Shown here one piece after another: positions 34,471 through 45,536 of a stretch of DNA of 58,909 bases; the stretch's first letter is position 1; every line of letters starts with the position of its first letter. The stretch is from an uncultured Clostridia bacterium (GTDB taxonomy: Bacteria > Bacillota > Clostridia > TANB77 > CAG-465), in NCBI GenBank assembly GCA_944386605.1, contig CALXBS010000004.1, forward strand, positions 1-58,909. The letters run 5' to 3'. The notes under the pieces are model-generated. The model did no database searches and was not told where the DNA came from. It saw only the letters and a program-made list of their open reading frames with translations. The translations under genes and the position numbers were made by a program.

Positions 34471-35040
34471 TTATGAAAAGCTTTTTCTTGTATTTAATTT
34501 CTTTAGTGAAATAAAAAGTATTAATAATGAATTTATTATCCCGTAAAGAGACGCAACTATCATCCAAGTAACCACTCCAAATATAGGGATAGAAATAGCA
34601 AAACCTAGTCTCTCTCCTAGTACATATTCTTTCCAAATATTAGGTTGTTGATCTAAAATTTTTAAGTCTTTGGATAACGTTACTTTAGTACTTACAGATG
34701 TTGGGAAAATTTCTAGATCCTGTTTTTTAAGATAACACGTAAACAATATATGATCCTTTTTATCCTCTATTTGATAGCCGACATCTTCTGGTATTGCGCT
34801 AATATCGATTTTATCTTGTTTTATTACATCACTGATTACTTGGTCAAGGTATCCATATGAGTTTTTCGCATAAAGTTCTAACTCTTTTCCGTACCTCGGC
34901 AATAACATAAAAGAATAGATAATGCTACTAAGCATTGTGATCACTCCAAAAGAAATTATAAATGCCAAAGAAATTGTAACCTTTTTACTTTTCTTAACTC
35001 TTTTTAACGCTAAATCACAAAAATACCGTTTTTCTTTCAT
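34471..35040 (-). CDS. hypothetical protein, TM - extracytoplasmic domain - TM
   Basis: 189 aa with hydrophobic helices near both termini. No family recognised. Confidence 0.55.
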   Translation of the reverse strand: MKEKRYFCDLALKRVKKSKKVTISLAFIISFGVITMLSSIIYSFMLLPRYGKELELYAKNSYGYLDQVISDVIKQDKIDISAIPEDVGYQIEDKKDHILFTCYLKKQDLEIFPTSVSTKVTLSKDLKILDQQPNIWKEYVLGERLGFAISIPIFGVVTWMIVASLYGIINSLLILFISLKKLNTRKSFS

Positions 35041-35125
35041 GCTAATCCTCCTTGAAAATAATTATTTTATTCTTTCAAACTAAATTCCCCTCTCTGCGAA
35101 AACAGAGAGGGAATGAAAATTATAT

Positions 35126-35656
35126 TTACCATATATCATCCAAGTATACTCTCATCCATAAAACAGCGCAAGCAATAAAAGAAAGTACTCCCCAAATGCA
35201 ATATAAAACATTGTTAGGATAAATACTAATTCCATCTGGATGTGTAACGGAAACACTTGATTCCTTCTGATCCGTTAATGTCTCACGAAGTTTCATGAGT
35301 ACATTTGTTTTTTCTAAAGCAGTGGCCTCTTCTGGAAGTTCCTCAAGTTCTTCATAAGACTTTTTCATGTTTTGATACCAATAACCTATATCATTTTTCG
35401 GCTGATGTAAAATAATAGATACAACACCTTCTGTTAAACCATGCTCTTCTGCATAAGAAATCGCCTGAGCAAGTTCTTCCTTTGCCAATTCAACCGTTCC
35501 AGCGTTTGCAGCTCTTTTAATATATTGCTCACAGTTTATATTAAATGATACTGCATTTTTAATCCGTAATACCATACATGCACCGCACATAATGGTTGCT
35601 AAAATAGCAAACACCAAAAAAACAACTTTACTGTTAGATTCCGTTCTTTGACTCAT
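35126..35656 (-). CDS. hypothetical protein, TM - helical domain - TM
   Basis: 176 aa with N- and C-terminal TM helices. It has its own extended -10 promoter (TATGTTATAAT) downstream of the radical-SAM operon terminator. Confidence 0.55.
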   Translation of the reverse strand: MSQRTESNSKVVFLVFAILATIMCGACMVLRIKNAVSFNINCEQYIKRAANAGTVELAKEELAQAISYAEEHGLTEGVVSIILHQPKNDIGYWYQNMKKSYEELEELPEEATALEKTNVLMKLRETLTDQKESSVSVTHPDGISIYPNNVLYCIWGVLSFIACAVLWMRVYLDDIW

Positions 35657-35815: not shown

Positions 35816-37429
35816 TTATTTAGATAACAAAACTAATTTTGCTTGTGCACAATCTTCCCCTGAAAAGCATACGATTTTTTCCTTCTGCGGATTAAGAATA
35901 ACGGACAAAAAATCTCCATATTGTTGTGTAAAATCTTGGTGATTTTTCGTATCATGAATGCTAAACCGAAACTCTGTCTCTCCTGGGTGACTATGGGCAA
36001 ATCCTAAAAACTTCACCTCTCCCAATGAGTCTTGATAAACAGTGTCTGATTTGGATAAATTTTCATTAATGATTGCTACTTCATCCATTACCTGACTTAC
36101 GCAAAAATCATCCATCGTAGCCATATTATGTGCTCGATTGTATAGAATACTTGGTACAGCATATTTTACCAAAGATACCGTATCAAAACTATGCCCTATT
36201 AAAGCCATTTGTTGTTCATATAGATTGCTTGGATGTCGCTCTCCATAATGAAAGAAACTGTATAAATCTTTCGTTGCTTGTGGCGTAAAGATGACCGTTT
36301 TGCTAGCTTCAAACTTAGCAGGGCTAATCGTATGATGTTGCAATGTTCCATTCTTTTGAATTAACAAAGAAAGAAGCTTTTTAGCAGATACTTCCTGTTC
36401 ATCTTCATGAAGTTTCTTTGTAAAAAAATCCCTGTAACAAAATAATGGGGTATTTGTTTCAAAATCAAATGTATGGAAACTATCTCCCTTACAATTCTCC
36501 CAATAGTTACAATTTTCACATTGCTTAGCTTTCGTTCTATCAGGATCTCTGTAAAATTCAAAACGATTTTTCCAAACTTCACAGAAAGGATCCTTTAAAA
36601 CGTTTCCTTGTATCAATTCTTTTCTTCTTGGAATATTAGGACATCCAAAAATATCCCCATTTGAAAGAATTGAAGCAACACAAATTCCAGTATGACAAGC
36701 AAACTTTTTACCTGTTGGATCTAGCGTATCTTGAGTATTTCCAAAATAATGTGTACAACTCCATACAACAGGAAGCGAGGAAAAGGCATGTTTCTTCATA
36801 AAGTCAAAGAGAAAATAATAATCCTCTTCACTTAACATTAAGGGCTCATTGTCTTTTGCTCTACCAATAGGATCAATTCCACTAATTCTAAATGAATCAA
36901 TTTGCAAAGAACTTAATAGCTGATAAACTTTTTCTAACTCATGAATATTCTTTTTGGTGGCGATAAAAGTAACCTGAATATGTTCAATAAAATTACTTTC
37001 TTTTAACCTTTTAATAGCAGAAATAATTCTATCAAACGAACCAGGAACATGTCTAAATGCTTCATGCGTCTCTTTCATTCCATCAAGGCTAATTGTTATT
37101 GTAGACATGTGTGTTTCTTTCATCTTCCTAATAACATCTTCTGTAATTAACATTCCATTTGTTACCAGTCCCCACTTAAATCCAAGTCTATCTGCATGTC
37201 CTGTAATTTCAAATAGATCCTTTCGTATAAGTGGTTCTCCACCTGTTATATTAAGCATAATCGTTTGGGTTCCAAAATTTTCAGCTACCTCATCCAGTAC
37301 TCTTTTAAAAGTATCTGCAGATAATTCATCCCTTTTATCCGCAGTACATCTGCTACCACAATGATCGCAAAGAGCATTACAGCGACTAGTAACCTCCAAA
37401 AAGAGTGTGTTTAATGGATAATTCCTCAT
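35816..37429 (-). CDS. radical SAM / SPASM-like maturase fused to a C-terminal JAMM (MPN+) metalloprotease domain
   Basis: CX3CX2C motif (CNALCDHC, 37358-37381), GGEPL, and a Cys-rich extension (CX7GX4C, CENCNYWENC). The C-terminus has YEQQMALIGH and HSHPGETEFRFSIHD (35951-35995), a JAMM-type H-x-H...S-x-x-D motif. Start set to ATG 37429, behind an AAGGAGGG RBS. Confidence 0.8.
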   Translation of the reverse strand: MRNYPLNTLFLEVTSRCNALCDHCGSRCTADKRDELSADTFKRVLDEVAENFGTQTIMLNITGGEPLIRKDLFEITGHADRLGFKWGLVTNGMLITEDVIRKMKETHMSTITISLDGMKETHEAFRHVPGSFDRIISAIKRLKESNFIEHIQVTFIATKKNIHELEKVYQLLSSLQIDSFRISGIDPIGRAKDNEPLMLSEEDYYFLFDFMKKHAFSSLPVVWSCTHYFGNTQDTLDPTGKKFACHTGICVASILSNGDIFGCPNIPRRKELIQGNVLKDPFCEVWKNRFEFYRDPDRTKAKQCENCNYWENCKGDSFHTFDFETNTPLFCYRDFFTKKLHEDEQEVSAKKLLSLLIQKNGTLQHHTISPAKFEASKTVIFTPQATKDLYSFFHYGERHPSNLYEQQMALIGHSFDTVSLVKYAVPSILYNRAHNMATMDDFCVSQVMDEVAIINENLSKSDTVYQDSLGEVKFLGFAHSHPGETEFRFSIHDTKNHQDFTQQYGDFLSVILNPQKEKIVCFSGEDCAQAKLVLLSK

Positions 37430-37444
37430 ATACCCTCCTTTCAA

Positions 37445-37885
37445 TTACTTAGATTCTTCTACCGTCCCTGTTGCCACTATGCTATCTTTTTCAGAATACC
37501 GTTCCGCTTCATTGATTGCCTCTTCAACACTACGAGCCATTGGACACCCATAAAGACATCTTCCTCCACCTAAAGAAGATCTATTACGTACCACAGGTCT
37601 AGGTTCTGGCTTTCCATCTTGAATCACGATACGACTTTTTTCTTGAATACCTAATTCTTTTAAAGATCGACATTTATCTGTACAAATCTCTGTAAGATTT
37701 GTTTTTGTATCATCTTCTAAGAATACCTTGGTTGTAGAGTATGACTCCCGATAAGAAGAGATATAACCTAAATCTCTCAAATAGGCTTTTAACACCACCT
37801 CATTCATATCTGCAGGAATTGTTACCTGACTATATTCCTTCCGATTACGTGTTACATACAAATGCATAAGTTCTCTTGCTGACAT
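37445..37885 (-). CDS. putative substrate/precursor: ubiquitin-like N-terminal domain, SLGGG motif, di-Cys segment and acidic tail
   Basis: 146 aa with a GGAGA RBS. Contains ...RSLKELGIQEKSRIVIQ, then DGKPEPRPVVRNRSSLGGG, then RCLYGCPMARSVEEAINEAERYSEKDSIVATGTVEESK. The stop lies 15 nt before the maturase ATG. Confidence 0.7.
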   Translation of the reverse strand: MSARELMHLYVTRNRKEYSQVTIPADMNEVVLKAYLRDLGYISSYRESYSTTKVFLEDDTKTNLTEICTDKCRSLKELGIQEKSRIVIQDGKPEPRPVVRNRSSLGGGRCLYGCPMARSVEEAINEAERYSEKDSIVATGTVEESK

Positions 37886-38014
37886 TTTCCTAAATCTCCT
37901 TTCATGGTATATTCATCTGTTTGTTACTAAAAACCCCCTCCTTTTCATAAACTTTTACCAAATGAAGTATTAACTTACATTAAAAATTTTGCTATAAGCA
38001 AATTTTATGCAAAC

Positions 38015-38043
38015 ATTCTATCATCTTTTTTACATAAAGTCAA
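38015..38043 (-). promoter_or_regulatory. putative sigma-A promoter of the precursor/maturase operon
   Basis: Minus strand reads TTGACT-17 nt-TAGAAT with a TG extended -10 (aTGaTAGAAT), about 120 nt upstream of ATG 37885. Confidence 0.45.
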
Positions 38044-38193: not shown

Positions 38194-38898
38194 ATGATTA
38201 TTATTAACAATGGACCAGTTTCAAGAAGAAATATAATAAGTATCTCACATGGTACAAACGTCGAAGAAACTGGTAAATTTGAAGAATTTAACCAAAAGAA
38301 AGTAAAAGATTCTAGCGATATTGATAAGATAACAATCGATTCAAAATTTGTCGATGTTCATGTTTTAGCTTCCAATTCATCCAAGATCCAAGCACACTTC
38401 TATGGTGAGGCAAATATTGATGGAGATGTCATCTTTGATGTTCAAGTGGTAAATCGTGAACTTAGAATTACGTTAAAGTTTACTGGCATCTGTGTTAGTG
38501 GAAATTTAAACCTCGATGTTACTGTACCCCACAAGATGTTTGAAATGATTTCTTTGAAGAGTTCATCAGCAGACTTCACCTTAAATGAGGGGGTTCAAAC
38601 TGACTATCTTAAAATAGAAACAAAGTCTGGTGATTTGGAAACTCATGCAACCGTAAACAATGTTTCCATTTCCACAATGAGCGGAGATATCGATCTTTAC
38701 ATCAATGCAGAACAAAATGTTAGCGTTGAAGTTTCTACAATGAGCGGTGACGTATCAGTAGAATTTAGCAATATTAGACATGTCAACCTTTCTGCAAGTT
38801 CTATGAGTGGTAAAGTTAAGAATCGTCACAACGGTAACAGAGGTTTTACCGCTAACGTAAATATTTCTACAATGGGTGGAGATATAAAAATTAGATAA
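38194..38898 (+). CDS. DUF4097-type beta-strand repeat protein (LiaG-like putative adhesin fold)
   Basis: Repeated (I/V)STMSGD(I/V) strands at the C-terminus, and an AAGGAGG RBS. Divergent from the radical-SAM operon. Confidence 0.7.
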   Translation: MIIINNGPVSRRNIISISHGTNVEETGKFEEFNQKKVKDSSDIDKITIDSKFVDVHVLASNSSKIQAHFYGEANIDGDVIFDVQVVNRELRITLKFTGICVSGNLNLDVTVPHKMFEMISLKSSSADFTLNEGVQTDYLKIETKSGDLETHATVNNVSISTMSGDIDLYINAEQNVSVEVSTMSGDVSVEFSNIRHVNLSASSMSGKVKNRHNGNRGFTANVNISTMGGDIKIR

Positions 38899-39947: not shown

Positions 39948-40297
39948 TGGTGGAGATGGTGGGAGTTGAACCCACGTCCATAAATTCTATTCTATCAACT
40001 TCTCCGAGTGCAGTAAATTTTATTTTACAAATTGTTAGCTTAAAAATTTACAAAAATACTATCAACCGAATGGAAAAATCCCCATTAACTTTACCATTAT
40101 CGTTAATTTTGTTGCTAGATCATTCGAAGCCCTTTATTACCCTCTAGCAAAATAATAAAAGACTCGCTACCTTAGGCAGCTAATGCAAATTTATTATTAT
40201 CTGCGTTTAATTTTATTTCTCGTTTTTATAGTGGCCAACGAGAATCCACTACTCGCTATCAATAGAATCAAAATAGATGTCGAAACCTTACATCCCC
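39948..40297 (-). ncRNA. ssrA: transfer-messenger RNA
   Basis: The 5' end is GGGGAUGUAAGGUUUCGAC. The 3' end is GUGGGUUCAACUCCCACCAUCUCCACCA, with a G3-U70 pair in the acceptor stem. The tag ORF GCAGAUAAUAAUAAAUUUGCAUUAGCUGCCUAA (40172-40204) encodes ADNNKFALAA*. Confidence 0.93.
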
Positions 40298-42681: not shown

Positions 42682-43053
42682 TTATTCCATAACTGCTACG
42701 GCACCAGCTGCTTTTAAAGCTTCTACTAATTTTTCAGCTTCTTCCTTAGGCATAGCTTCTTTTACAGTCTTAGGTGCTGCATCTACTAAATCTTTAGCAT
42801 CTTTTAATCCTAAACCTGTAGCTTCTCTAACTGCTTTGATAACTGCAATTTTAGATGCACCAGCGTCTTTTAATACTACGTTAAATTCTGATTTTTCTTC
42901 AGCTGCTGCAGCTCCACCTGCAACAGGTCCAGCAGCAACAACAGCTGCAGCTGCACTTACTCCAAATTCTTCTTCAATAGCTTTTACTAGATCAGCTAGT
43001 TCTACTACTGATAATCCTTTTATTTCTTCCATTATTTTTTCTATTTTTTCCAT
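42682..43053 (-). CDS. rplL: 50S ribosomal protein L7/L12
   Basis: 123 aa with an Ala/Gly hinge and a C-terminal domain ...LKDAKDLVD...[14 protein letters not shown]. Confidence 0.97.
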
Positions 43054-43107
43054 TTTAAAATCCTCCTTAAATATCTAAAAATAATTTCTTCCTAAATTAA
43101 ATCCATA

Positions 43108-43608
43108 CTATGCATTCTCTTCTTGTTTTTCTTTTACTTGATTTAATACTACTGCAAGATTTCTGATATTTCCAAGTAATGCAGAAGCAAGCATAGTGTA
43201 TAATGTTTCTTTTGATGGTAGATTTGCGATTTTCTTAATTTCGCTTTCTTCAACTTTTCTACCTTCTAAGATTCCTAATTTAATACGATAAAAATCGTGA
43301 TCTTTTGCATAATCATAAACTGCTTTTGCAGCTTCGATGTAATTTTCATTTGCAATAATAACAGCAGTTGGTCCTTCTAAGTTTTCAATTCCTTCTACTT
43401 TAGCATTTTTAGCAGCAAATTCAATTGTAGAATTTTTTACTACCATACATTCATTTCCATTTTCTCTTAAAGCAGCACGTAATTTTGTATCATCTTCAAC
43501 GTTGATACCTCTATATTCTACCAACATGATCATTGTTGCATTTTCAAATTTCTTTGATAATTCTTCTACTTTCTTTTGTTTGATATCTAATACTTTTTTA
43601 CTTGGCAC
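43108..43608 (-). CDS. rplJ: 50S ribosomal protein L10
   Basis: 166 aa with a GTG start. Supported by its position upstream of rplL and L10-like sequence (VEYRGINVEDDTKLR). Confidence 0.93.
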   Translation of the reverse strand: MPSKKVLDIKQKKVEELSKKFENATMIMLVEYRGINVEDDTKLRAALRENGNECMVVKNSTIEFAAKNAKVEGIENLEGPTAVIIANENYIEAAKAVYDYAKDHDFYRIKLGILEGRKVEESEIKKIANLPSKETLYTMLASALLGNIRNLAVVLNQVKEKQEENA

Positions 43609-43745
43609 TTTTTATGACACCTCCTCAAATGCAAAAAAAGTTCTTGTTAAATACTACCAAGATTACACATAGTATCTAACAAGAATTCCGTTCCTATTAG
43701 CTTATCATTGTAACCTCGGTAGGAATTATGGAATTAACATTCCAC
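43609..43745 (-). promoter_or_regulatory. rplJ (L10) leader with an intrinsic attenuator hairpin
   Basis: 137-nt leader between rplA and rplJ. A long hairpin (UUCUUGUU...AACAAGAA, 43633-43686) followed by U7 ends about 25 nt before the start codon. This matches the Firmicute L10-leader attenuation mechanism. Confidence 0.6.
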
Positions 43746-44423
43746 CTACTGTCTTGGGTTTACTTTTATTCCAGCGCCCATAGTTGTTGATATAGCAATT
43801 GATTTTAAGTATGTTCCTTTCGCAGCTGCTGGTTTTGCTTTTACAATAGCATCTAATAATGTATTGTAGTTTTGCATTAACTTTTCAGCACCGAAAGATA
43901 CTTTTCCAATTGGACAATGAATAATATTATTCTTATCTAATCTATATTCAATTTTACCAGCTTTAATTTCAGTAACTGCTTTTGCTACATCCATTGTAAC
44001 AGTACCTGATTTTGGATTTGGCATAAGACCTTTAGGTCCAAGTAGCTTAGCAATTCTTCCTAATGAAGCCATCATATCAGGTGTAGCAACAACAACATCA
44101 TAATCAAACCATCCGCCTTGGATTTTTTGAATCATATCATCATCACCAACAAAATCAGCACCTGCTTCTTTAGCAGCTTCTGCTTTGTCACCTTTAGCAA
44201 TGACTAAAACTTTTTTTGTTTTACCTGTTCCATTTGGAAGCACAATAACGCCTCTTACTTGTTGATCTGCTTGTTTAGAATCAACACCTAATTTAATGTG
44301 CATTTCAACAGTTTCATCAAATTTAGCTTTAGGCATTTTAAGTGCTATATCCATTGCTTCAGATAAGTCATAAAGTTTACCTGGTTCAACTAATTTCATA
44401 GCTTCTTTCATTCTTTTGCTCAT
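43746..44423 (-). CDS. rplA: 50S ribosomal protein L1
   Basis: 225 aa with an L1-typical sequence ([13 protein letters not shown]...QQVRG). Confidence 0.97.
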
Positions 44424-44474
44424 TCTTTTTCCCTCCTTTGGTCATAGCGAACATATTTTTATGCTCTCCCATTA

Positions 44475-44906
44475 TTAGCCTATAACTTCGATCCCCATTG
44501 ATCTAGCTGTACCCTTAATAATAGATACTGCTGATTCTAATGATGATGCGTTAAGGTCTTTCATTTTAATTTTTGCAATTTCTTCCACTTGTGCAAGAGT
44601 TACTTTTCCCACTTTTTCTTTATGTGGTTTACCAGAAGCTTTTTCAATTTTTGCTGCTTGTTTTAAAAGTACTGCTGCAGGTGGGGTTTTTAGAATATAT
44701 TCAAATGATTTGTCTGCATAAACAGTAAGTACAACTGGGAATATCATTCCAGCATCCTTTGCTGTTTTTTCATTGAAATCTTTACAAAATTGCATAATGT
44801 TAATTCCTGTTGGTCCCAATGCAGGTCCTACTGGTGGTGCAGGATTTGCTTTTCCAGCTTGTATTTGCAATTTTACTACATGTGTAACTTTCTTTTCAGC
44901 CATCAT
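44475..44906 (-). CDS. rplK: 50S ribosomal protein L11
   Basis: Sequence [21 protein letters not shown]. Start set to ATG 44906, behind an AAGGAGGTG RBS. Confidence 0.95.
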
Positions 44907-44969
44907 TTTCACCTCCTTAAGCATTGCAATTTATATAAATATATAGAAACTATATACTTAAATACTTAT

Positions 44970-45536
44970 TTATATTTTTTGAATTTGGTTAAAATCTAAT
45001 TCAACAGTAGTTTCTCTGCCAAACATAGATACTTTAACCTTTACTCTTTTTTTATCTTTAAATATTTCTTCAATAACTGCTGAATAATTATAGAATGGTT
45101 CTGCTGTTATTCTAACACTATCTCCTACCTCAAAATCAAGGTTAATAATATCTTCAATTCCTAAAGATTGCATTTCCTTATCTGTTAAAGGTAAAGGCTT
45201 ATCCCCAACTCCAACAAAATTAAAAACACCTTTTATATTTTTAACAACATACCATGTTTCATCAGACATAATCATCTTTACAAGAACATATCCTGGAAAA
45301 ACTTTTTTAATAGAAGTTTTTTGTTTTCCATCTTTAATTTCTATTTCTTCTTCCATTGGGATAATAATTTCTTGAATTTTCTCTTGGAGTCCTCTATTTT
45401 CAACAATTTTTTCTAGAGTTGCTTTTACTTTATTCTCATATCCAGAATAAGTATATACAACATACCAACGTGCTAATTCTGTCTCTTCATGGTTTGTATT
45501 GTCTTCATTTAAAACGTCTTGTTTATTTTCCTCCAC
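44970..45536 (-). CDS. nusG: transcription termination/antitermination factor NusG
   Basis: NGN domain (WYVVYTYSGYENKV) and a KOW domain. Conserved secE-nusG-rplK order. Confidence 0.95.
   Translation of the reverse strand: MEENKQDVLNEDNTNHEETELARWYVVYTYSGYENKVKATLEKIVENRGLQEKIQEIIIPMEEEIEIKDGKQKTSIKKVFPGYVLVKMIMSDETWYVVKNIKGVFNFVGVGDKPLPLTDKEMQSLGIEDIINLDFEVGDSVRITAEPFYNYSAVIEEIFKDKKRVKVKVSMFGRETTVELDFNQIQKI

Follow-up and report, generated by a model that had tools for sequence, protein, structure and literature searches.

Radical S-adenosylmethionine (SAM) enzymes with a SPASM domain mature several groups of peptides that are made on ribosomes and modified after translation, or RiPPs (streptide, triceptides, mycofactocin MftA/MftC, and sactipeptides and ranthipeptides such as SCIFF/CteB). 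In these systems a small precursor gene adjoins the gene for the SPASM enzyme, a short motif marks the site of action, and tandem multi-copy precursors are present at some loci. Spliceotides (PlpX, RhaX, RasX) arise from binary enzyme-precursor pairs with an invariant X-Y-G (LYG in RasA); some of their precursors resemble proteins, and recognition involves residues on either side of the core (PMC11626197, PMC11414181). Precursors with NHLP/Nif11 leaders (PMC12455567) carry a long (70-100 amino acids, aa) structured or conserved N-terminal region before a short modified C-terminal segment. In a further group (QbsE/QbsD, CysO/Mec+, CxnE/CxnF, SAMP/JAMM1), a JAMM/MPN+ protease is encoded next to a beta-grasp protein that is extended at its C-terminus. 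Mec+ cleaves CysO-Gly-Gly-Cys between the second Gly and the Cys, and in CysO-Cys it is a Cys that comes after the scissile Gly. A Cys also follows the scissile Gly of QbsE, where the JAMM protease QbsD removes CF from QbsE-GG-CF, and CxnF has been proposed to trim a decapeptide located behind the GG of CxnE (PMC5925218). Here we describe a two-gene cassette from an uncultured Clostridia bacterium (GenBank assembly GCA_944386605.1, contig CALXBS010000004.1, positions 1 to 58,909; the whole stretch of 58,909 nucleotides is called the window), in which a small protein with a ubiquitin-like domain is encoded next to a radical SAM-SPASM-JAMM enzyme.

The cassette shares the adjoining genes, the short motif and, at some loci, the tandem precursors with the radical SAM/SPASM RiPP systems, and CteB is the best solved relative of its enzyme. 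Unlike these systems, it has no RiPP recognition element (RRE) detected at the Pfam level and no transporter gene; its precursors are conserved at the C-terminus and variable at the N-terminus, which is the reverse of the leader-core arrangement, and the carrier can be a folded ubiquitin-like domain. With spliceotides it has the invariant X-Y-G and the binary organization in common. It differs from them by the near-invariant Cys-Pro after the YG and by the fused JAMM domain, neither of which is a known splicease feature, and by its hosts, which are anaerobic gut Clostridia; the likeness is one of motif and organization. The beta-grasp domain is unrelated in fold to NHLP/Nif11 leaders and can be swapped for membrane-targeting sequences. 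In contrast to the known pairs of ubiquitin-like proteins and JAMM proteases, the cassette lacks both a GG terminus and an E1-like enzyme, its motif is set off from the fold by a linker of about 20 residues, its JAMM domain is part of a radical SAM enzyme, and the enzyme family appears to serve precursors that are not ubiquitin-like as well.

Both genes of the cassette lie on the minus strand:

37445 to 37885, minus strand: putative precursor (substrate) gene, 146 aa, with stop codon at 37445-37447 and AGGAG ribosome-binding site at 37896-37900

35816 to 37429, minus strand: putative maturase gene, 537 aa from the ATG at 37429, starting 15 nucleotides after the precursor stop codon

Strict pairing of small open reading frames (ORFs) with the enzyme, a single motif shared among these ORFs and intact catalytic residues together make it very likely that the fused enzyme takes the products of these ORFs as its substrates and acts on them at Y-G-C-P. 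We further consider it probable that the two genes form a RiPP-like precursor/maturase pair, in which the radical SAM domain modifies YGCP and the JAMM domain cuts. A preliminary description, made from the window sequence, had already suggested a RiPP-like precursor. This idea gains strong backing from the adjoining radical SAM/SPASM-JAMM gene, which the description had not mentioned; the GGG junction, di-Cys core and variable tail that it had attached to the idea did not survive the comparisons below.

The ORF at 37445-37885 does encode the 146 residues previously given, and its ATG is preceded by AGGAG at a distance of 10 nucleotides. A search of 5.8 billion proteins returned 105 homologs of 135-165 aa with 45-99% identity, so that this is no chance ORF, and a profile search of 1.84 billion cluster representatives returned 48 clusters. 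None of the 105 homologs has a Pfam domain. For the 146-aa protein itself there was no significant match in Pfam, NCBIfam, PADLOC or PHROGs, and its profile had no match among PDB sequences. The homologs divide the protein into four segments:

37616 to 37873, minus strand: predicted beta-grasp (ubiquitin-like) domain, residues ~5-90, with a conserved LRDLGYISSY patch (AlphaFold2 and Foldseek)

37559 to 37615, minus strand: Pro/Glu-rich linker, residues 91-109, variable in length and sequence, which holds the non-conserved GGG

37541 to 37555, minus strand: L111-Y112-G113-C114-P115 motif, at which modification and cleavage are proposed to take place

37448 to 37540, minus strand: conserved tail, residues 116-146, MAxSVEEAINQAExYSxxDSxxTTGxI, with a predicted helix at 118-128 (alignment and AlphaFold2)

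Judged by conservation, the functional site of the protein is very likely Y-G-C-P. LYGCP was kept in 105/105 homologs, and the tail after it, with its predicted amphipathic helix, is the best-conserved stretch of the protein. V120 and S135 are invariant in the tail, and M116, A117, S119, A123, A127, E128, Y130, D134, T139, G140 and I142 are conserved in at least 90% of the sequences. The conserved Gly belongs to the Tyr-Gly of the motif, about 23 residues past strand 5.

These data bear directly on the model of the preliminary description, according to which a ubiquitin-like leader would be cut at SLGGG to release a short di-Cys core with C110 and C114, the tail being dispensable and variable. 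The features on which this model was built exist in this one sequence (GGG at residues 106-108, 37562-37570; Cys110 and Cys114 within RCLYGCP; 32 residues after Cys114), and other precursors often have a Gly at a distance of 4-8 residues upstream of the motif. Yet GGG is present in only 4/105 homologs, and position 110 is occupied by Cys in 74, Ala in 11, Tyr in 10, Val in 5, Phe in 4 and Thr in 1, so that neither SLGGG nor CxxxC is a conserved feature. Precursor classes from related loci (see below) have neither GGG nor a second Cys, and the tail is conserved where the model has it vary. The preliminary description had itself stated that the model falls if GGG and the two Cys are not conserved; on these alignments it does fall, and we regard it as extremely unlikely.

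The enzyme combines three domains in one polypeptide, namely a radical SAM core, a seven-Cys SPASM domain and a C-terminal JAMM/MPN+ metalloprotease domain:

36764 to 37414, minus strand: radical SAM core, with CxxxCxxC (C22, C26, C29) at 37358-37381 (PF04055, E 4e-23)

36425 to 36763, minus strand: SPASM domain (PF13186), with seven invariant Cys (230, 250, 268, 309, 312, 318, 336)

35819 to 36313, minus strand: JAMM/MPN+ domain, residues 378-542, with E410 at 36215-36217 and H484-S-H486...S495..D498 at 35951-35995

A mechanical ORF call places the enzyme start at a TTG at 37444, which abuts the precursor stop codon and gives 542 aa. The shorter start is likely, because AAAGGAGGG, a strong ribosome-binding site, precedes the ATG at 37429, and because a 99% identical homolog (P0119) has 537 aa. 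The radical SAM motif begins as early as residue 22, leaving no N-terminal extension on the enzyme; Pfam gave no match to a PqqD/RRE domain, although no structure-based search for an RRE was made. Invariant residues were called from an alignment of 32 sequences, in which C22, C26 and C29 of the radical SAM core and E410, H484, the adjoining S, H486, S495 and D498 of the JAMM domain (about 165 aa) are all invariant. The SPASM assignment is above threshold (PF13186, score 23.9 versus a cut-off of 21.5). The radical SAM/SPASM part is closest to NCBIfam TIGR04133 ('rSAM_w_lipo'; residues 6-338, 277 bits, cut-off 425), a name that recalls the many lipoproteins among the present precursors; unlike the enzyme, this family is a 350-position model without JAMM. 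The best solved relative is the SCIFF Cys-thioether synthase CteB (E 6e-17, residues 7-323), and the similarity is generic. Searching proteins with the C-terminal 200 aa of the enzyme gave fragments only, and the full-length query gave homologs.

The JAMM assignment is based on profiles and predicted structure, as the Pfam Prok-JAB model reached only E 0.02, below its cut-off. When the profile of the C-terminal domain was compared with the PDB, only JAMM deubiquitinases were found (AMSH-LP, Sst2, an Rpn11 homolog and BRCC36, E 1e-4 to 5e-2, with AMSH-LP at E 1e-4). The AlphaFold2 model of the domain has an MPN fold and a predicted local distance difference test (pLDDT) score of 87.6, and Foldseek matched it to the Caldiarchaeum Rpn11 homolog (E 1e-9), BRCC36, CSN5 and PfJAMM1, with template modeling (TM) scores up to 0.84.

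With the JAMM-domain alignment, 53 loci were retrieved from species-representative genomes, 45 from metagenomes and 1 from IMG/VR; 108 loci were considered overall. The named hosts are all Clostridia, represented by metagenome-assembled genomes (MAGs) from the gut or rumen of humans, mice, rabbits, goats, sheep, deer and buffalo, and include Lachnospiraceae, Oscillospiraceae/Ruminococcaceae, Oribacterium and 'Clostridium sp.'. At 104/108 enzyme loci there is at least one small ORF on the same strand with YG[C/A]P.[S/A], which ends roughly 15-45 residues past this motif. One precursor per locus is the most frequent arrangement and a few loci have up to six, giving 130 distinct sequences. All that the precursors have in common is x-Y-G-[C/A]-P-x-[S/A] and the tail: Y, G and P never vary, Tyr is preceded by L, Y, H or F, and three positions past Cys there is always Ser or Ala. 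The order of the two genes is kept while the neighbors differ by lineage (pheST, lexA or the rplK-rplL cluster). All-against-all ORF clustering of the 53 genomic loci identified no other recurrent gene family near the cassette. Apparent additional gene clusters in this analysis turned out to be out-of-frame shadows of the enzyme gene and were discarded.

The N-terminal parts of the precursors are interchangeable and fall into distinct classes (numbers of distinct precursors):

Ubiquitin-like beta-grasp, the type found in the window: 24

Zn-ribbon plus ubiquitin-like: 5

Bona fide lipoprotein signal peptide with lipobox: 18

Transmembrane helix: 7

Trp/Phe-rich amphipathic helix or other: 76

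In profile comparisons with the window protein, the Zn-ribbon versions (97% probability) and the distant ubiquitin-like versions (91% probability) are homologous. The lipoprotein-type and other precursors matched no NCBIfam model. Paralogs encoded at the same locus are 48-89% identical in motif and tail, compared with only 16-38% for their N-terminal parts. Precursors of the ubiquitin-like class have acidic tails, and those of the rumen classes have strongly basic ones (CPNSKKAQKLQLxRKLYR). Hydrophobic or aromatic residues stay in register between the two types, with V120, A123 and Y130 corresponding to A/V, L and Y. A Cys follows the YG in about 126/129 precursors and an Ala in 3. Two of the Ala variants are the lipoprotein-type precursors of an Oribacterium MAG (L046, 3240-4231), which both read YYGAP and are located beside an intact 670-aa enzyme with a 130-aa repeat insertion; the other is one of two precursors at L054 (4757-4939).

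Some loci have unusual arrangements. Six tandem precursors precede a single enzyme gene at L007 (2050-3891), four of them peptides with a transmembrane helix (64-76 aa) and two of the Zn-ribbon/ubiquitin-like type (~155 aa); the third of the six has an additional, degenerate LYGPP copy of the motif. One lipoprotein precursor (P0281) has two full ELYGCP repeats. At the divergent locus L008 (2106-3357), a second small radical SAM protein precedes the precursors (241 aa, Fer4_12 and Radical_SAM, activating-enzyme-like), and a 180-aa Cys-motif protein is also encoded; neither was seen at other loci. The only match in the viral collection (L063, 427-967 of IMGVR_UViG_3300010163_001736) is a deletion remnant of the ubiquitin-like type at a contig end, in which about 90 N-terminal residues of the precursor lead directly into the final ~100 residues of the JAMM domain, with loss of the radical SAM/SPASM part. 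We therefore rejected an association with phages, the remnant being the sole IMG/VR match. An association with defense was rejected as well, as PADLOC gave only generic matches to viperin-type radical SAM proteins.

For the window protein, the N-terminal 90 residues are confidently predicted to adopt a beta-grasp (ubiquitin-like) fold. With an alignment of 40 sequences as input, AlphaFold2 gave pLDDT values of 83-90 across residues 11-90 and a beta-beta-alpha-beta-beta-beta order (E6-14, E17-24, H29-39, H46-51, E53-57, E64-67, E84-89), which coincides with the strands and the helix noted in the preliminary description. The top Foldseek matches of this domain in the PDB were ubiquitin-type folds only (ubiquitin variants, the UBX domains of FAF1 and UBXD7, and the ubiquitin-like domains of TBCE and TBCB), with E ~1e-4, probability 1.0 and target-normalized TM scores of 0.7-0.8. 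A disordered or non-beta-grasp domain, which would have spoken against the earlier proposal, was thus not what was found, and the combination of a folded ubiquitin-like domain with a C-terminal Cys-bearing extension is indeed unusual. Residues 100-106 of the linker have pLDDT below 50, and C110 and C114 are modeled in a small hairpin.

A beta-grasp fold with a JAMM protease next to it raises the question of whether the protein could be the pro-form of a sulfur carrier or conjugatable ubiquitin-like protein of the ThiS/MoaD/CysO/QbsE type, as the preliminary description had offered in its alternative reading of a masked GG terminus. The JAMM domain would then take off the C-terminal extension and so free a terminal Gly that could be adenylated, thiocarboxylated or conjugated, and the radical SAM domain would be unrelated to the ubiquitin-like protein or would use the sulfur. 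The Gly-Cys junction does recall CysO-Cys and the GG-CF junction of QbsE. Sulfur carriers with extensions of the GG-CF and GG-decapeptide kind are trimmed by known JAMM proteases (PMC5925218). In the present family, however, the terminus would be Tyr-Gly and not Gly-Gly and would sit on a variable linker, about 20 residues past the fold; only 12/105 homologs have any GG in the 7 residues upstream of LYGCP. A relationship to ThiS, MoaD or YukD is not detectable at the sequence level; there was no ThiS/MoaD match in Pfam or NCBIfam, and no E1/ThiF-like gene at the 53 loci, to which this search was confined. Motif and tail are also attached to lipoprotein signals, transmembrane helices and amphipathic peptides, which cannot be sulfur carriers. 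We consider a sulfur-carrier function very unlikely.

Another alternative is that the small protein is not a substrate at all: it would serve as an adaptor, regulator or chaperone and bind to the JAMM domain in the way that ubiquitin does to a deubiquitinase, and the Cys of YGCP would simply be a ligand of a metal or Fe-S cluster. Two observations agree with this: the modeled hairpin with C110 and C114, and a segment of the enzyme that recalls the motif of the small protein. This segment (window 36631-36651, enzyme residues ~265-271, GDIFGCPN) surrounds the cluster ligand Cys268 and reads [F/Y]-G-C-P-N, or F-V-C-P-N in enzymes of the rumen clade. Its likeness to the substrate Y-G-C-P-[N/M] may be a coincidence, or may reflect docking of the substrate Cys at an Fe-S cluster. 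Against a mere binding partner, the catalytic residues of the JAMM domain are invariant, the small divergent ORFs, of which up to 6 follow one another in tandem and which share motif and tail only, are typical of precursors and not of adaptors, and some precursors have two copies of the motif (P0281 and the third one at L007). An adaptor role is thus very unlikely.

Returning to the reading as precursor and maturase, we propose that the small protein is built as a ubiquitin-like carrier, a floppy linker, the invariant L-Y-G-C-P and an amphipathic helical tail. The tail helix, perhaps together with the ubiquitin-like domain, would dock on the enzyme. The radical SAM/SPASM domain would then perform radical chemistry on the Y-G-C segment; its SPASM architecture speaks for a radical modification that is made on a peptide. 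Finally, the fused JAMM domain would cut the backbone, most probably after Gly113, separating the ubiquitin-like domain, the linker and LYG from the Cys-Pro tail. A JAMM domain points to hydrolysis after Gly, Gly113 is the only invariant Gly, and QbsD, CxnF and Mec+ provide precedents, so that the bond between Gly113 and Cys114 is the favored site; by analogy with these enzymes we would put the chance of a cut at exactly this bond a little short of even. Hypervariable N-terminal cargo next to a conserved motif and tail agrees with a follower peptide at the C-terminus, and so does the hydrophobic face of the tail, which is kept in register and suits a docking helix; the N-terminal part would then retain the modified ...X-Y-G end. 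The reverse layout may also apply, in which the ubiquitin-like domain is the leader and the Cys-Pro tail is the product.

Regarding the radical chemistry, we would grant no single named reaction more than a minority chance. Candidates are a Cys thioether or Tyr-Cys link, which fits the CteB similarity and the seven-Cys SPASM domain; a three-residue cyclophane (aromatic-X-X3, Tyr to C-beta); and a splicease-type excision of tyramine at X-Y-G. The natural Cys-to-Ala variants (both precursors of L046, one of L054) indicate that the thiol is not indispensable and move weight to chemistry centered on Tyr and Gly.

The splicease-type candidate is a specific version of the favored reading. Tyramine would be excised from Tyr112 of L-Y-G, leaving an alpha-keto-beta-leucine (ketoamide), and the JAMM domain would be the maturation protease. 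Spliceases act at XYG including LYG, binary systems without accessory protein exist, and recognition depends on core-flanking residues (PMC11626197, PMC11414181). The present family has an invariant X-Y-G with X being L, Y, H or F, the Cys-to-Ala variants retain Y, G and P, and loss of the Tyr side chain might leave a slim, Gly-Gly-like P2-P1 for the JAMM groove. These points are set against a score of only 104 bits (versus 277 for the best family) to TIGR04103, a Nif11-class radical SAM maturase family that may represent spliceases, and the near-invariance of Cys and Pro would not be explained. Overall we treat the spliceotide version as a tentative and rather doubtful possibility.

Several observations weigh against the favored reading as a whole. 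The spacing from His to Ser in the JAMM motif of the enzyme is 8 residues, compared with 7 in the canonical motif, and a classical JAMM groove offers little room for a Tyr at P2. The radical SAM part is about equidistant from many characterized SPASM maturases (AhbD, NirJ, MftC, WgkB, StsB, PapB and others), and its best NCBIfam match, TIGR04133, stays below the cut-off and is itself uncharacterized. No transporter, immunity gene or RRE protein recurs in the 53 loci. Replacement of Cys114 by Ala in 3 precursors weakens any mechanism that requires a thiol. The lipoprotein-type precursors are exported, and cleavage behind YG in the cytoplasm may not suit their biology.

Upstream of the precursor gene, a consensus scan found one promoter-like site:

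38015 to 38043, minus strand: TTGACT-17-TAGAAT with TG

This is weak evidence for a promoter, because such sites are no more numerous in the region than in shuffled sequence. No terminator was found between the precursor and enzyme genes; terminator-like sites are located downstream of the gene after the enzyme. Rfam identified no RNA element near the cassette. The tmRNA gene (RF00023, 141 bits) lies about 2 kb upstream at 39948-40297 on the minus strand, and a ribosomal protein L10 leader (RF00557, 43627-43776, minus strand) precedes rplJ-rplL, with rplA, rplK and nusG upstream (region 42682-45536). The same ribosomal cluster flanks the cassette in L005 and L006, indicating partly conserved synteny. 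A divergently oriented gene at 38194-38898 (plus strand) encodes a 234-aa DUF4097 'toastrack'/LiaG-like protein (Pfam E 3e-22) and is not kept beside the cassette elsewhere. On the other side, the enzyme gene is separated from metK by the genes for two small predicted membrane proteins without family match (176 and 189 aa; 34471-35656, minus strand), with a terminator-like hairpin at 35086-35113 after the first; neither protein recurs at related loci.

We found no description of a radical SAM enzyme fused to or paired with a JAB/JAMM/MPN domain for peptide maturation, of a ubiquitin-like leader or of the YGCP motif in the open-access part of PubMed Central and in bioRxiv, a scope that does not extend to the splicease types of Scott et al. 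2022. The same sources held no papers on TIGR04103 or TIGR04133. JAMM/MPN enzymes are not among the RiPP leader proteases covered by a 2023 review (PMC10885120).

In its most far-reaching form, the proposal would amount to a new maturation class for ribosomal peptides or proteins. One radical SAM-SPASM-JAMM enzyme would rewrite the backbone or the side chains of Tyr-Gly-Cys and then cut after Gly, so that a ubiquitin-fold protein, or a lipoprotein or membrane peptide in sister systems, would end in a chemically new C-terminus, such as a ketoamide or a Tyr-Gly with a cross-link, the tail being a follower and not the product. It would join ubiquitin-like/JAB processing to RiPP radical chemistry. 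Taken in all its parts this is unlikely. If the favored reading holds, the cassette represents a compact two-gene modification system recurrent in human-gut, rodent and ruminant Clostridia (108 loci); the use of a JAMM-family protease for maturation of the RiPP type would be a first, and so would a ubiquitin fold as carrier or leader for a radical SAM maturase. A self-contained enzyme that modifies and cuts, directed by a ~30-residue tag, could serve protein engineering, as spliceases already do. The system also bears on the recruitment of ubiquitin-like/JAB pairs into different bacterial chemistries.

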